64,000 bases of DNA. Origin: a virus. Lineage: Duplodnaviria > Caudoviricetes. The DNA is taken from positions 29,683-93,682 of IMG/VR virus record IMGVR_UViG_3300031992_000055; one strand, written 5' to 3'. Shown here piece after piece: positions 6,144 to 20,956 of the stretch. The notes beneath the pieces are model-generated. The model made no database searches. It was not told where the DNA came from and worked only from the letters and a program-made list of their open reading frames with translations. Both the position numbers and the translations under genes were made by a program. Within the stretch, counting starts at the first letter, position 1. The number at the start of each line of letters is the position of its first letter.

Positions 6144-6422
6144 TTAGTAAATTACTTCCATACCTACCTTTAGCCAATCTGGTACTTTATCTTTAAAATA
6201 TACAACTACTGTTTCTGGGGTATGTACATCTTCTGCAACTGGTATTCCAAATGCAGCTTCAAATTTCATATAAGACATAATTCCATACTTTTTTCGAAAG
6301 TTAGCATCTGGATTTGGAAGCAATATTTTTCTGTTAGAGAGTGGAAGTATAAAAGATAATATTATTGAATGTTCTCCGATTTCTTCTATTTTCCATACTC
6401 TTGGTTCCTTAAGTTTATCCAT
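6144..6422 (-). CDS. Small hypothetical protein, paralog of 5797-6117
   Basis: Same shared motifs; overlaps the vWA gene stop. Confidence 0.65.
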   Translation of the reverse strand: MDKLKEPRVWKIEEIGEHSIILSFILPLSNRKILLPNPDANFRKKYGIMSYMKFEAAFGIPVAEDVHTPETVVVYFKDKVPDWLKVGMEVIY

Positions 6423-8754
6423 GTTCTTCTGGAATATAAATTACTTTACCAGGAAAATCCTGATGCATTCCATTAGATGTAATTACCCATACCATACCAG
6501 AAAGATTCCTATTAGGCAAAGAACATTCTCCATCAGTGAAATAGATAAGAGAAGCATATTCTTTCTTGTGCTTGATGTAGTATTCTACAGGTGGATTAAA
6601 GTCAGTTCCTCCTCTACCATATATCTCAGGTATTCTCTTACCATCATACTCTACTATCTTGTTAATACGGGTATCACATTCAAGAATAGTTACTCTTGCT
6701 CCTGCTTTATAGATATATTCTATTTCACCAAAGAAATCTCTGAGTTCCTCTGTTGATACTGAGCCTGAGGTATCTACTGCAACAAGAATACTGACTTTCT
6801 TCTTGTGTTGTATACCTGCTGCTCCCTCAAATCTTTTAGATTCCTTTCTTCTGGTTGTCTTTATATTTACATCATATATAGAGCCAAGGAGTCTTCTGAA
6901 ATAATGCTTCCAGTTAAATATCTCAGGCTTTTTCTCATTAAGCTTGGATATTATTTCAGATAATTCTCCTGGAATAGTTCCATTCTGTCTTGATATCTGT
7001 TCAGCAGTGCTTTTCAAGAGAGTATTCACATTGTTCACCATCAATTGCTTGGTGGCTTCTGGTACATCTCTAAAGTCTTTCCAAGAGTTATGGTCATCCA
7101 AAGGCTTCTTTCCTTCTGGTAGTCCCTTTGGATACTGACTTTCTTTCTTTTCTTGTTTATCTTCTTGCCCTCCTCCTTGAGAGCTACCTTGTCCTTGACC
7201 TTCCTGATTAGATTGTTGTTGTTGCTGTTGTTGTTGAGATTGTTGACTTTGATTTGTCAGCGCTTCATAATAATACTTAGTTCCTTGTCCATCAGGTAAG
7301 CCAATATCGGATGCTTTACATCCATCACTAGGAAGATTCTCTATGTAAGAGTTTACTTCCATGTCTGCAGCAATATTAAATATTTGCGCATTCGTAAAGG
7401 AGTTAACCATAAACATATGTTGAAAGGCAATATGACTACGATTGTTAACTAATACTTTCATATTAGACCAGACTATACCTTCATCCCGTTTTGGGATGGA
7501 CTTATTATAGTCGTTGAACGTCTTTCTTCTGCATATTTTTCAAATTTTACTTTCTTTCTTTCAAGAAATACAGTAGCATCAGAATACATATAATTATAGA
7601 ATTTATATGAGTCTTTAACGCTATAAACTACTGTATAGACATTATTGTAGTGTTTTATTTTATTGTATTTTGTTGGTACATACTGTATTAAACTTTCTAA
7701 AAATTCCCTGGAACCACTACAAACACCACTATTCAAAGTTGTATTATCTTTCCCAGGTAAATATTTATGAATACTAACACACCCATCCCCATCAAAATAC
7801 CCTCTTATAAAATGATGTACCAGTGAATTTTCAAGAGGGGGAAATTGAATAATATTTGATTTACAAGGAACGCATCCTAATTTACAAAGATCCTTGAAAA
7901 GTTTGTTACTGGTAATATGTAACTTCCAAATGTCTTTATGGTAGTGAGGATGTGTCTCTTTAAGTAAATTTCCAGTAAAACCAATATCTTTTTTAAACTG
8001 ATTTAACCAATCTCTGTCAATAGAGGACACAAACAATTGACCTGTTCCACATTTACCGATAGAAACATTTCCATCAGCAAACATTACTCCAAGCCAATAT
8101 GCTTTAATTTCAGTGTCAATCACTTCAAAAAAGGATTCATTACATTCATATAAGTAATTTTTACCTACTGCTCTAACTACATCAAACGAATGTAATACTT
8201 TAGCAACAGTTTTATCTCCCGCTTTAAAAATGCGAGCTATTTTATTAATTGCTAATTTTTGTTCTACGTATAAATTTACAATTTTTTCAATCTCTTCCCC
8301 TGAAAACTTTCTAATATACATAATTTTATATGAGTTAATATTCAATACAAAGATAGTAATTTATTTTAAAATATAGAAGAAATTTCGCTGCGGATTTTCC
8401 AATATTAACGCTTTTTACCATACCTGAATAATTAGTTCAGCCCTTTACTACATTACTATGTAAAGTTGGTACGTTAATCTCTAAGGAGGTTCCCGCAATT
8501 TAAAGTCTTTTACATTCTATATTACTATAGAAAGGAGCCTAGCTATTAAGCTCATGCTGGAGTAAGGCAATCTGTTCATCATCTGAGTAGTTTTCCCAGA
8601 ACTCCGGATTAATACATAACTCAAGATTGATGCCTTTTCTTCTTACACATAGAGTGTCTATTGTCGTAGTTATTGTCTTAGGTAGACTGAGACAAAAGAG
8701 ACCATAAAACGGACTCTTTATCAACAGCCTTTTAAAGGTCTTTTCTATTTCCAT
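6415..8754 (-). CDS. HExxH metallopeptidase-vWA protein (DUF2201-like), spliced (exon1 8754-8549, exon2 7438-6415; ~409 aa)
   Basis: Splicing restores HELSHIAFQH, followed by NIAADMEVN, a Q-rich linker, and vWA motifs DTSGS, GRGGTDF, YFTDG. Confidence 0.88.
7439..8548 (-). mobile_element. Group I intron (IB-like) in the HExxH motif
   Basis: P AAATTGCGGGAA, Q AATCCGCAGC, R GTTCAACGACTA, S AAGGTATAGTCT. P1 is exon GAGCU with IGS GGCUC (U-G wobble); P10 GCUA/UAGU; terminal G at 7439. Confidence 0.92.
7473..8321 (-). CDS. Intron-encoded double-motif LAGLIDADG homing endonuclease
   Basis: YWLGVMFADG and FIRGYFDGDG motifs. ATG 8321 preferred over TTG 8345 because a -7 promoter box lies at 8348-8355. 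The 3' end overlaps the intron core. Confidence 0.88.
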   Translation of the reverse strand: MYIRKFSGEEIEKIVNLYVEQKLAINKIARIFKAGDKTVAKVLHSFDVVRAVGKNYLYECNESFFEVIDTEIKAYWLGVMFADGNVSIGKCGTGQLFVSSIDRDWLNQFKKDIGFTGNLLKETHPHYHKDIWKLHITSNKLFKDLCKLGCVPCKSNIIQFPPLENSLVHHFIRGYFDGDGCVSIHKYLPGKDNTTLNSGVCSGSREFLESLIQYVPTKYNKIKHYNNVYTVVYSVKDSYKFYNYMYSDATVFLERKKVKFEKYAEERRSTTIISPSQNGMKV

Positions 8755-10801: not shown

Positions 10802-11269
10802 TTATTGAAAAATGTCATTAGAAAGAGGATCAATCTGTTTTTCCTCTTCTACTCTTTGGGCGTCATAGTCAAAGTCATTGCCAAATACTCCTTCTGTAGT
10901 AGGTACTTCGATAGGCTCTTCATTTTCTGTAGTTACTTCCTCTTCTTCAATAGCAACCACATACTGCTTCTTTGCCTCGTCATATCTTACAATGTCAGTA
11001 GGCAAGAATTTTGTTGACTTGATGGGTTTACCCTCAGCATTAGTTCCAGTAACCTCTACCACCTTCTTCACAAGGTCAGTCACATGGAATCCTGTCACCT
11101 CTACAATGCCCTTTTCTAAGGCAGCAATCATAGCCTGATAGTTCTTTCTCTCTTCTTCAAGGGCTTGTATCTTGTCCTCGATAGGCTTAAGTTTTTTGAC
11201 AATAGGATCAATTGCCTTTGCTACACTCCTCACACTCTGAAACTGTGTGTACGAAATTCTTTTTTCCAT
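10802..11269 (-). CDS. Hypothetical protein (coiled coil, acidic tail)
   Basis: In operon, with typical codon usage. Confidence 0.65.
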   Translation of the reverse strand: MEKRISYTQFQSVRSVAKAIDPIVKKLKPIEDKIQALEEERKNYQAMIAALEKGIVEVTGFHVTDLVKKVVEVTGTNAEGKPIKSTKFLPTDIVRYDEAKKQYVVAIEEEEVTTENEEPIEVPTTEGVFGNDFDYDAQRVEEEKQIDPLSNDIFQ

Positions 11270-16628: not shown

Positions 16629-16945
16629 TGTTTAAAAGATTAAATAATTAATTATGAATATATATAAAGCGTGAATTGTCAACAAATAAAAAAGCTCTCT
16701 CTTGTTTCACAACAAAAGAGAGTAGATTTCAAAATAAATTAACTCAAAATTTTATCTAAGCTCTCTTTTCACAAAGAAAACATAGATAAGGTCTTATAAA
16801 TCCGAAGTTGCATGAAAACAAAACAAATCTAACGAACTAAAAATCTTAAGGATTTATTAAGAACCTCTACCTATTAAAATAAGCAATTAAAATAATAATA
16901 ATGGCTTGTGGGCCTTGTAGGGTTTGAACCTACGACCTTCAGATT

Positions 16946-17448
16946 CCTGCCACACTATGTTACCATAGCCAAATTTAGGAAAGAAATACTACTTACCCTC
17001 CATAATAGTAAGCTGGATTAGTTTCAGTAATCTTCTTCATCATTTGTTGTGGTCTGGACTGTCTCTTTACCATATTGAAATTCTTGCAAGTAATCTATTT
17101 TAACGTAGAAGGGAATTTGCAAACCCTCATCTCTGTACGTTACAGTGTTTTTTCTTTATTCAAACTACTACGCTTATTATTAGACAATTTCAACTTAGGT
17201 ATTCACCCGTTCAGTCTCTACACGTTTGTAAGGAATATCATCCAGGTATAGGGCAATTTCAACCTACAGAGTATTCAATATATTATCTGATTCCTTATTT
17301 TCGCTCGGTATTGTCCTTACACATTATTGATTAGTGTTGTTATAAACATCATAACGGTACCTGTAATGATGTAACAACATAAAAAGGATTTCCACCGAAT
17401 TTGGGTGATTCTACATAGGGATTTCTCGCCTATGCACACAATTTTACT
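16946..17448 (-). mobile_element. Group I intron (IC3-like, ORF-less, 503 nt) immediately 3' of the CAU anticodon
   Basis: IGS AUUGUG pairs with CAU (P1) and AAU (P10). P AAATTCGGTGGAA, Q AATACCGAGC, R GTAGAGACTGA, S AAGAGACAGTCC; terminal G. Confidence 0.9.
17101..17174 (-). ncRNA. tRNA-like cloverleaf nested in intron P8
   Basis: AGCGTAG/CTACGTT acceptor, TA, GTTT/AAAC D stem, CTGTA/TACAG stem, AGAT variable loop, GAGGG/CCCTT T stem; loops non-canonical. Confidence 0.65.
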
Positions 17449-17594
17449 ATGAGTCTGCTGCTCTAACCTACTGAGCTAAAGGCCCTTAATATGTATATAA
17501 AGTTACTAATTCTTTAAATGGCGGAGTCTACCAATCTCACGACTAATAGACTCCTAGCTATCAAATCCAAATCAAATACACAATAAACATTTAG

Positions 17595-17668
<74 letters not shown>

Positions 17669-18386: not shown

Positions 18387-18804
18387 AACTTTTTTAGTAT
18401 TAATCTAAAGTCCAAGAATCTAATCCTATAGGAATATTTTCAACTTCAATAAGCTGAGGCGTCATAACAGTAATTTGAACTTGTATAGTTCTATCTGTTG
18501 GAAGGCTTCCTTTGATAATATTCTTAGAAATCTTAAGATTAACTATTTGTTGTGTGTATATCATTTCTGTAATAAAAGAAGTAATAGGAGTTTGGCGAAT
18601 CTTCTTATTAGAAGCTCTTTTAAAGAGTTTCTTTATTCCTGCTTTATGTTCTGCGCATCTCTTATCTCATTTTTTGTTTTTCTTGTTGTCTTTCGTTGTT
18701 CTGCTCATCTTTATAGGAATTACATAATTTTATTGAGCTTACCATGATGCCACAGTACTTTTGTACTGGGCAACCATGGCAATTTTTATAAACATCTAAA
18801 TATT

Positions 18805-19059
18805 TCATATTTTTGTTGTAAAACCTCTTCTTTTTAGTTCTGCACAAAGATATGGAAGAAAGGCTTTTCTTATACCTAATCTTTTAATCATTTTTACACA
18901 ATTTAGAATATGCCATAAAGACATGTCTTTATAGAGGATTAGTTCACCCTCTTTGGTTGTCCACCCTAAATGTCTATTGTTATACGCTTCTTCTATCTCT
19001 GTAAGGATGCTGTCCTCATCTATCATGAAAGGAGCTATCCAATCGTCATAGTATGCCAT
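18805..19059 (-). CDS. Small hypothetical phage protein
   Basis: WTTKEG...KDMS..HI.NC motif common in phage early genes. Confidence 0.6.
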   Translation of the reverse strand: MAYYDDWIAPFMIDEDSILTEIEEAYNNRHLGWTTKEGELILYKDMSLWHILNCVKMIKRLGIRKAFLPYLCAELKRRGFTTKI

Positions 19060-19082
19060 TAGTTTATTGTATATAATCTGTA

Positions 19083-19422
19083 AAAGTAGAGTAGAGGAAG
19101 GAGCAATAGTCAGTCAGACTATATTGATTGATGGAATTAAAGGAATGTAATTAACTATTGAAGTAAGTCTAACTTACGGCATCCTTCCTCTATTACACAG
19201 CCACTATGGTGGGTGGAATTTGTTCTGTGTCTCTACTATGAAAACTACCCTGAATTATGCACCCTTTATAGAGTGTGACGCCAACAGGGTTTAGTGAAAA
19301 TGGAGTCTTCGCGGCCCTACTAAAATGGGTAAGCAACTCCGCTCTTCTTACGTCAATTAAAGGCAAGGAGTAGACACTGCGGCGCTACAGCAGGCAGTGT
19401 AAGTCCTACTCTTCTTACCTTG
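19083..19422 (-). ncRNA. Candidate large structured ncRNA (~340 nt)
   Basis: Many nested stems, more GC-rich than flanks, G-U pairs mostly favour the minus strand, ends in a U tract. Confidence 0.6.
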
Positions 19423-19423
19423 A

Positions 19424-19831
19424 TTATTTCAGCCCAAATTGGATGGAATCCTTGTACTCTTCAGAGGGTTCTTTCTCAGTGCCATACACTGAGAACCAGT
19501 CCTCCAATAGGGGAGTTGAGTAATGATAGAAATCTTCCCAATCTCCATTGAGAAGTGAGTCTATTTTCGCATATTCTTTAGTTGGAACAAAATCAGTAAA
19601 CCAACTTTCATGGTCATCGTTACTGTAAAATCTGTGTAGCCCTTCAAAGAGTGCTATTATCAGTTCTCTTTGTTGAATAAGGGTTTCTTCTTTATTTTCA
19701 AAATGAGGATACCAAATAGATTTTGTTCCGTCTTGCCGACAATCTGCAGCCATATATATTTCTTGTCCTCCTAAGTTGTAGGAGAGCATAGATACTATGA
19801 TTAATATGGTTGTGTAAAGTAATTTTTTCAT
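19424..19831 (-). CDS. Hypothetical protein with N-terminal signal/anchor
   Basis: MKKLLYTTILIIVSMLSY hydrophobic N-terminus. Confidence 0.6.
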   Translation of the reverse strand: MKKLLYTTILIIVSMLSYNLGGQEIYMAADCRQDGTKSIWYPHFENKEETLIQQRELIIALFEGLHRFYSNDDHESWFTDFVPTKEYAKIDSLLNGDWEDFYHYSTPLLEDWFSVYGTEKEPSEEYKDSIQFGLK

Positions 19832-19980
19832 AATGATTTGGATTTAGAATAAATAAGAAAAGGCCTCTCATGTCTTCTTCTCCTACCAGTTAGCTATCTA
19901 ATTTCAGCCTGTCGTAGAGAATCAAGTGACATTTGAGGCCTTTGAGAATTTAATTTAGATAAGGAGAGCAAATAGCCCTC

Positions 19981-20478: not shown

Positions 20479-20521
20479 AAAAAAGAAGAGAGGAAAGGTG
20501 TCAATTAAGACACCTTCCTCT
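20479..20521 (-). terminator. Intrinsic terminator
   Basis: AGAGGAAGGTGTC/GACACCTTTCCTCT stem plus U tract. Confidence 0.7.
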
Positions 20522-20545
20522 ATGTCGGTCAGTAGCAAGTGTTAT

Positions 20546-20956
20546 TTACTTGCTCATTGCTGCAAGAGCACGCCAGTTGAAGCCGAGGGACTTGCGCTTG
20601 CTCTGGCCCTGCCTGCACAATACATAAGATTCCATCTGCACTTTGCGAGGCTTTGTGCCATTGGCTTTGGCTTCCTCGTCATACTGTTTCTGGAGCTCAC
20701 GACGTCTTGCCAAGGTCTCCTCATCAGGCTCTGTCTGGCACACCTGTAAGGTGGCATAGTTGGCATTGAGGAATTCCTTTGTCACAGGCTCTTCAAGTCT
20801 GCTTGAGATTGCCACATAGGTGTCTTTCCCTGTCAAAGGGTCGTTGAACACAAGGCACTCTCCATTAGAGGTTTCCTGCACATTGGGGTCACCATGAAGC
20901 ATGCAGAACTGCAGAAAGCTGAATGAATCAATGGGTGAAAAGTTTGTTGTTGCCAT
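20546..20956 (-). CDS. First early gene, hypothetical
   Basis: First ORF after the control region, capsid-like codon usage, own terminator. Confidence 0.7.
   Translation of the reverse strand: MATTNFSPIDSFSFLQFCMLHGDPNVQETSNGECLVFNDPLTGKDTYVAISSRLEEPVTKEFLNANYATLQVCQTEPDEETLARRRELQKQYDEEAKANGTKPRKVQMESYVLCRQGQSKRKSLGFNWRALAAMSK

Follow-up and report, generated by a model that had tools for sequence, protein, structure and literature searches.

The gap and its neighbourhood

The window, by which we mean the whole stretch of DNA analysed here, forms the final 64 kb of an IMG/VR virus record of 93.7 kb whose completeness is estimated at 91%. The portal, terminase and major capsid proteins encoded in it are of the crAss-like type, and the capsid protein is ~70% identical to those of crAss001, IAS virus and other Steigviridae references (Crassvirales). 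Two minus-strand open reading frames (ORFs), 19424-19831 and 18805-19059, leave a gap of 364 nt between them (19060-19423). A tRNA-Arg and a tRNA-Leu gene lie 700-1800 nt from this gap, the tRNA-Leu at ~700 nt (ARAGORN), and a helicase gene, for which no relatives were found in IMG/VR, lies at a distance of 3 kb. The GC content is 0.47 at 19200-19500 compared with ~0.32 in the surroundings, and the enrichment falls into the 5' half of the gap (as read on the minus strand).

Further features were seen in the neighbourhood. An imperfect inverted repeat of 33 nt (19842-19874 / 19928-19960, 73% complementary) fills the gap upstream of ORF 19424-19831. Positions 17452-17482 repeat the 5' half of the tRNA-Arg (17635-17665) over 31 nt with 84% identity, which points to a third tRNA, interrupted or degenerate, within the non-coding stretch 16630-17590; Rfam at the gathering score detected no group I intron in that region. 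In the replication module, a LAGLIDADG_3 homing-endonuclease-like ORF (7473-8345, minus strand) adjoins the gene of a DUF2201 protein (6415-7461, minus strand) that combines a VWA-like domain with a putative metallopeptidase domain.

A preliminary description made from the letters of the DNA had interpreted the gap as one multi-domain RNA of ~340 nt belonging to an unrecognised class. All the stems that it listed are present in the sequence (Table 1), and folding confirms a real structured RNA on the minus strand: the whole gap folds with -105 kcal/mol and a z-score of -5.0 on this strand (0 of 100 shuffles were as good), versus a z-score of -2.4 on the plus strand. When the halves were folded alone, the 3' half reached a z-score of -5.6 and the 5' half one of -2.2, with 4 of 200 shuffles being as good as the latter. 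Rfam recognised nothing in the gap, either at the gathering score or at E<=10, and ARAGORN found no tRNA or tmRNA inside it; the RNA is indeed none of tRNA, tmRNA, RNase P, SRP, group I intron or hammerhead. A blastn search of the gap against 50,697 phage records gave no match. The idea of a single RNA of an unrecognised class fared less well, as the 3' ~155 nt fall by homology into a known class and are the only part conserved in related phages.

Table 1. Features of the gap, with the stems as they appeared in the preliminary description (DNA letters).
Feature	Position	Strand	Composition	Preliminary description
H1	19360-19421	-	Interrupted hairpin of 21 bp, 2 nt after the stop codon of ORF 19424-19831	AAGG..GAGTAG..ACACTGC hairpin
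H2	19296-19347	-	Branched hairpin, GGAGU/ACUCC and other stems	GGAGT/ACTCC
H3	19244-19295	-	ACCCUG/CAGGGU enclosing a small hairpin	ACCCTG/CAGGGT
Y RNA-like domain (putative ncRNA)	19085-19237	-	P1 closing the P2 hairpin and the P3 long stem-loop
P1, closing stem	19085-19091 with 19231-19237	-	AGUAGAG/CUCUACU	AGTAGAG/CTCTACT
P2, hairpin	19195-19230	-	Stem ACACAG/CUGUGU, inner hairpin CCAC-CCACCAUA-GUGG	ACACAG/CTGTGT
P3, Y stem	19093-19192	-	10-bp outer helix, distorted conserved helix, 9-bp inner helix, AU-rich loop of ~45 nt	Outer stem TAGAGGAAGGA / TCCTTCCTCTA
5'-strand motif GAUGCCGUAAG	19173-19183	-	Candidate Ro60/Rsr contact site
UUACUUCAA	19158-19166	-	From the last inner-helix pair into the apical loop; conserved
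3'-strand motif UAUUGCU	19102-19108	-	Pairs with the 5' motif

The 3' domain in four phage contigs

We looked for copies of the RNA through its neighbours and by its own sequence. ORF 18805-19059 was found only in identical copies of this phage, in which the RNA is identical too. ORF 19424-19831 has 46 relatives, and genomic contexts were fetched for about 20 of them. Using nhmmer, positions 196-345 of the RNA, which correspond to the 3' half alone, were found to recur in a 97.8-kb ENA scaffold (L006:2689-2827). The domain at 19085-19237 is homologous to L006:2680-2832 and to a further contig, L159. The copies of the window and L006 are 78% identical and differ by 10 compensatory base-pair changes. 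A covariance model built from these two sequences alone (R1) retrieved a third copy, L023, with 52.5 bits, and the fourth, L159, was found with a later model.

In all four phage contigs the element adjoins a gene of the ORF 19424-19831 family, upstream of it in L006, L159 and L023 and downstream of it in the window. The proteins of these relatives are only 56-61% identical to the product of ORF 19424-19831, and the stem is still kept. The other neighbours in the window and L006 are unrelated genes without synteny. Approximately 16 other contexts of the gene family are without the element, which is thus present in 4 of ~20. Among reference Steigviridae, crAss001, IAS virus and cr85_1 gave no match to the element and cr106_1 a weak one of 17.9 bits. 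Pattern scans of IMG/VR found no further copies: the 16-mer CCACCCACCATAGTGG gave two chance matches, and a three-part pattern gave 15 loci with no true member among them, the best reaching 21.9 bits with many mispairs.

Comparison of the copies revealed how the domain is maintained. The counterpart of P1 in L006 and L159 is AAGAGU/ACUCUU, a sequence other than that of the window. The outer stem of P2 reads GUAGUG/CACUAC in both, with 4 of 6 pairs changed on both sides, and the inner CCAC-CCACCAUA-GUGG is nearly letter-identical; neither L023 nor the bacterial copies described below have P2. The long stem of P3 has the order GAUGCCGUAAG...UUACUUCAA...UAUUGCU. Its outer 10-bp helix is variable, and a 3-nt bulge lies between the distorted helix and the covarying inner helix of 9 bp. 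In the distorted helix, UGCCGUA of the 5' strand faces U(G/A)UUGC of the 3' strand, with the pairs G-C, C-G, C facing U, G-U, U-A (U-G in most relatives) and A-U. All phage and rsr-adjacent copies have UGCCGUA with little or no variation, and UACUUC is conserved in nearly all phage and bacterial copies. Pairs 13-127, 14-126, 16-124 and 18-122 are invariant, and 17-123 shows a one-sided change only. As the G-U pair (two of them in most relatives) and the C facing U would not pair on the opposite strand, the RNA is assigned to the minus strand.

Some of the originally listed pairings look different in this light. CAATAGT/ACTATTG and GTAAGT/ACTTAC exist in the sequence and are probably non-native, because they compete with the long-range inner helix that is supported by covariation in the relatives. 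We also considered a local hairpin, AUAGUC/GACUAU, in place of the inner helix; as L006 retains this hairpin and L023 does not, the long-range helix is preferred. The suggested UGACGU/GCGUCA pseudoknot is possible, in a part of the RNA that has identical copies alone. The AU-rich loop of P3 is without a T-loop, and no YrlA or tRNA match was obtained in 18800-19700 at E<=10.

Relatives beside rsr and the search for a phage partner

The conserved tracts GGATGCCGTA and TTACTTCA were used to scan a genome collection. The pattern GGATGCCGTAN{6,12}TTACTTCA gave 5 viral and 112 genome loci, at a chance estimate of ~120. When R1 was run on 85 of the pattern loci, L075, a Prevotella MAG contig, and L089, from Mucilaginibacter aquariorum, were the only matches. 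Both carry arrays of the stem, with three copies in L075 and six in L089, and each array adjoins a gene encoding TROVE and vWA_Ro60 domains (rsr). A further covariance model, R2, whose seed includes three phage sequences, was run on the whole genomes G001 (the Prevotella MAG, 2.2 Mb) and G002 (6 Mb), and all of its matches lay at the rsr locus. We detected TROVE in 3 of 121 sampled genomes of the family of G001, and in each of these three genomes 2-5 R2 copies, on the strand of rsr, directly precede this gene. Two more genomes of the family have R2 copies and no detectable TROVE.

The window's P3 scores 94.8 bits with R2 on the minus strand versus 17.4 bits on the plus strand. We also built a model, R3, from 17 bacterial rsr-adjacent copies only (Prevotella-family genomes and Mucilaginibacter). 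This model, which is less circular and not fully free of circularity as its copies were selected and aligned with R2, gave a single strong match in 64 kb, on the minus strand of the window at 19094-19191 (70.5 bits, E 1.9e-19), and no P3 match on the plus strand at E<=1. The other phage copies were matched as well, with 60.6 bits for L159, 55.7 for L006 and 50.5 for L023. In an alignment of 7 sequences, 94% of cells were paired and 16 of 24 pairs were compensatory; none of 500 shuffles was as high, and all slid registers stayed at or below 55% paired. Among the 17 bacterial copies, compensatory changes occurred at 19 of 23 pairs. Covariation, which the preliminary description had named as a check, is present for the 3' Y-type stem; for the 5' half there are no homologues to compare. 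These data indicate that the 3' ~155 nt are homologous to the Ro60/Rsr-associated Y RNAs of Bacteroidota, an assignment made by comparison of sequence and pairing, and that their structure is under selection.

Some array members carry T and D arms in their loops. The Rfam YrlA model gave 25-35 bits on the bacterial rsr-adjacent copies, which is only about half its gathering score of 69; matches of 31.7-35.5 bits fell inside the loops of some copies. At L089:5054-5793, six tandem Y-type modules follow rsr, several with a T-arm or T- plus D-arm insert, and one, copy D at L089:5466-5542, is a bare stem. As YrlA gave only 25-32 bits on these modules, the Bacteroidota type of Y RNA appears to be under-annotated.

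Several observations concern the surroundings of these and related stems. Inside one array, L150:1732-1804 (minus strand) gave a tRNA match of 53.8 bits, well above threshold. A divergent WYL and WCX regulator is encoded at L075:60-1088 (minus strand) in the Prevotella MAG, and two RlaP nucleotidyltransferase genes follow the array in Mucilaginibacter (L089:5825-7647, plus strand). Both these RlaP genes (see PMC12776372, PMC7824862) and rsr-yrlBA-rtcBA, which damaged tRNAs induce (PMC7790460), connect bacterial rsr loci with RNA repair. Of the two family genomes without detectable TROVE, G081 carries two identical Y-stem copies 10.8 kb apart (C89:242-322 and 11025-11105), one of which adjoins an HNH_3 endonuclease ORF, and G105 a single copy (C278:282-372). 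These copies score 53.8-56.1 bits with R2 and 59.3-65 bits with R3, and may be orphan Y RNAs on a mobile element. From such copies without TROVE it follows that the stem may work without Ro60, or that the MAGs are incomplete. In the window itself, the hairpin UAGAGGAAGGUGUCUUAAUUGACACCUUUCCUCU at 20489-20522 (minus strand) has a 10-nt 5' arm that is the same as in P3 and a UGUC..GACA core. R3 scores it at 20.6 bits as a Y stem with the interior deleted, and its place behind ORF 20546-20956 is that of a terminator. A second Y copy may have collapsed here, or the likeness may be due to chance.

We wondered whether the phage brings its own partner protein. TROVE, the Prevotella Rsr protein, DUF2828, RtcB and RlaP all gave no match in the 93.7-kb record (~91% complete), and vWA_Ro60 gave none beyond a 10-bit match in the DUF2201 protein. 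A hidden phage Ro60 in the form of a vWA protein was considered and rejected, since this sole weak vWA_Ro60 match is the VWA-like protein with the putative metallopeptidase domain. While the bacterial homologues adjoin a Ro60/rsr gene on the same strand, the phage RNA does not. It is possible that a Ro60 gene lies in the missing part of the record.

The 5' hairpins, rival readings and a possible role

The 5' ~180 nt (19241-19423) form three GC-rich hairpins, H1-H3. Neither nhmmer nor blastn found homologues of this half in all the fetched loci, and the three related phages with a Y domain do not have it. The decamer GUAAGAAGAG occurs twice, at 19342-19351 and, within H1, at 19409-19418. Inspection by eye shows GUAAG..CUUAC..UUGC in H1 and H2 in the order of P3, and GACGUAAG in H2 as well. 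H1 and H2 were tried as further Y modules and dismissed, R2 giving only 1.3 and 0.7 bits; the duplicated decamer as a pattern matched 38 loci in IMG/VR, largely on giant-virus contigs, and no locus was homologous. Behind H1 stands UUUAAUU, and H1 could be the terminator of ORF 19424-19831. A scan for the intrinsic terminator consensus found no minus-strand site in the gap and one weak plus-strand site at 19201-19216, P3 being a stem-loop of 100 nt and H1 having UUUAAUU only behind it, neither of which has the form of an intrinsic terminator. The junction of the halves lacks a clear promoter box of the Bacteroidota type and shows just a relaxed TAGTTTTC, at 19247. It may be that the 5' half extends the Y RNA at its 5' end in this lineage only, or that it belongs to the upstream gene as a terminator or 3' UTR.

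On balance we consider it likely that the gap encodes a Y RNA-like ncRNA (~19085-19237, minus strand) that docks on the Rsr protein of the host, and that the three GC-rich hairpins at 19241-19423 are a second, different element. The view that the whole of 19060-19423 is one new multi-domain RNA, in which the Y stem would be the docking module and H1-H3 an effector module in place of the tRNA-like domain of YrlA, seems unlikely to us. It gains from the hairpins filling the gap without a spacer, the strong fold of the whole gap, the want of a clear promoter box between the halves, the GC enrichment of the 5' half, the decamer common to H1 and H2 together with their P3-like order of tracts, and the modular build of Y RNAs, which combine a Ro-binding stem with a second module (PMC4201824). 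However, no homologue of the 5' half was found in the loci and collections searched; this half is missing from three related phages with the Y domain, reaches ~1 bit with the Y-stem model and folds barely better than shuffles, and H1 sits terminator-like directly behind a stop codon. We regard it as quite improbable that the element acts in cis on a phage mRNA as a terminator, as an RNase-processing or stabilising structure, or as the 5' leader of the ORF 19424-19831-family gene. Such a role would suit its position next to the family gene in all four phage contigs, the U-rich tract after the closing stem (ACUUUUACA in the window, CUUUAUACA in L006, CUUUUUUACC in L023), and the short hairpin at 20489-20522 with the same 5' arm in a terminator position. 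Yet the side of the gene differs between phages, ~16 other contexts of the gene family lack the element, and the bacterial homologues are laid out like trans-acting Y RNAs, standing beside rsr in tandem, 2-6 to an array, and in part with tRNA-like inserts. A terminator, moreover, needs neither the invariant distorted helix nor the UACUUC tract.

The element could also be a passenger, a functionless piece of a bacterial rsr locus that the phage lineage acquired. Its patchy distribution (4 of ~20 contexts, none in crAss001, IAS virus or cr85_1, no more copies in IMG/VR) and the lack of partner genes found in the phage record fit this idea, which is nevertheless highly improbable: the element has been kept in four phage contigs despite the divergence of the flanking protein and the otherwise unrelated neighbours, all helices are maintained by compensatory changes with the motifs intact, and 150 nt of neutral DNA are rarely retained for so long in phage genomes. 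Scarcely any credence is due to a DNA-level element near the replication genes, such as a replication origin or a recombination site composed of inverted repeats. Many nested inverted repeats in an intergenic position near the helicase gene might suggest one, but the G-U pair or pairs and the C facing U have no equivalent on the other strand, R2 and R3 both single out the minus strand, the plus strand folds worse, and the bacterial homologues adjoin rsr.

How does the putative Y RNA compare with characterised ones? Bacterial Y RNAs are encoded beside rsr, as seen for YrlA and YrlB of Salmonella, Yrn1 of Deinococcus and YrlA of M. smegmatis (Chen et al., 2014, PMC4201824; Rfam RF02553). In common with these, the phage RNA has a long stem with a conserved purine-rich motif, the candidate Rsr site, in the 5' strand, a modular build of stem plus variable second module, and covariance-model homology to arrays adjacent to TROVE/vWA_Ro60 genes, some of which have YrlA-type T and D arms. 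The phage motif GCCGUAAG is one base, U for A, off the published Rsr-site motif GNCGAAN0-1G, which is the likely Rsr contact in bacterial Y RNAs and which these authors relate to GGUCCGA, the sequence that Xenopus Ro60 contacts (Chen et al., 2014, PMC4201824). As nearly every rsr-adjacent Bacteroidota copy that we saw has the U variant, this variant probably represents the local form of the putative Rsr site. Unlike the bacterial Y RNAs, the phage RNA does not lie beside rsr, and it possesses the conserved P2 hairpin and the P1 closing stem as extra parts. It differs from YrlA (RF02553) in lacking the tRNA-like domain with its T and D arms and in falling below Rfam detection. Without a tRNA-like domain it is not a YrlA and comes closer to the short YrlB-like type, such as the bare stem of copy D in L089.

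Vertebrate Y RNAs (hY1, hY3, hY4 and hY5, as well as Xenopus Y3 with Ro60) share with the phage RNA a terminal stem in which a distorted or bulged helix is conserved. In contrast, the Rfam Y_RNA model does not match the phage RNA even at E<=10, and the transcription machinery and 3' end biology are different. The hY1 tract GAGUUAUCUCAAUUGAU presumably resembles GAGUUACUUCAAAUACUGAU of L006, which we take as a lead and not as a test. Ro60 is reported to read the helix of vertebrate Y RNAs mainly on the 5' strand, GGUCCGA (cited in PMC4201824, PMC12135203).

Pairs of Ro60 and Y RNA-like RNAs have been described for mycobacteriophages, for CcrColossus of Caulobacter and for phage G of Bacillus (PMC4201824, PMC12135203), and one has been proposed for Listeria phage CKA15 (PMC12282133). 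Thermus phage phiLo encodes phiRo60 together with Yrl1 and Yrl2, for which co-opting of the host PNPase was proposed (PMC12135203). The likeness lies in a Y RNA-like RNA being encoded by a phage, that of the window close to phage tRNA genes. Those phages encode a Ro60 of their own, however, whereas the record analysed here gave none with TROVE, vWA_Ro60 or DUF2828, so that its RNA would depend on the Rsr of the host or on a different partner. Each published phage Y RNA that we found is paired with a phage Ro60, and we found no Y RNA reports for crAss-like phages in the literature. Judged from the genome sequence, an orphan Y RNA of the Bacteroidota type in a crAss-like phage thus appears to be a new arrangement compared with the published phage cases. 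Phage tRNA regions carry stable RNAs of unassigned role, for instance the species 1 and 2 RNAs of T4; these are likewise small structured ncRNAs near phage tRNA genes, and the analogy is one of context only.

We infer that the RNA is transcribed and, as no Ro60-like gene was found in the phage record, that it binds the Rsr of the host during infection and would thereby affect the host. Its location among early/replication genes and tRNAs on the same strand suggests that the RNA would be made early in infection. By analogy with characterised Y RNAs, the conserved distorted helix would then serve as the dock for the Rsr ring. The RNA might act as a tether that uses the AU-rich loop or the extra hairpins to re-target Rsr to an exoribonuclease such as PNPase; tethering of Rsr to PNPase was shown in Deinococcus, and a similar role was proposed for phage phiLo (PMC12135203). 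Alternatively, it might be a gate or decoy that occupies Rsr and blunts RNA surveillance or repair by the host. We offer only tentatively the possibility that a Ro60-less crAss-like lineage captures host Rsr in this manner, disabling surveillance or repair or redirecting Rsr together with an exoribonuclease, and that the 5' hairpins or P2 would be an effector-binding module replacing the tRNA-like domain. The Rsr partner may be missing in many hosts, and a Ro-independent role is possible given that rsr is rare in the sampled host family (3 of 121 genomes).

Conservation of Y RNAs and Ro60 extends from bacteria to humans, yet what they do in bacteria is poorly understood. Some species of gut and rumen Bacteroidota have a Ro60 that has been considered as a trigger of autoimmunity in lupus. 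Among gut viruses, the crAss-like phages belong to the most abundant ones, and, to our knowledge, very few of their non-coding RNAs have been described. A phage that carries the RNA only points to an RNA that acts on a host protein, as a hijacking device or as a decoy, and would offer a simple test system that needs a single small RNA and a single host protein and is read out as a plus/minus phenotype. If the proposed role is true, this would be the first virus to supply only the RNA half of the Ro ribonucleoprotein. The comparison further defines a Bacteroidota-type Y stem, UGCCGUA...UACUUC...UGUUGC, which lies outside the reach of the Rfam YrlA model and tracks rsr in 3 of 3 cases in the sample searched, and which could serve for Y RNA annotation in gut and rumen Bacteroidota.
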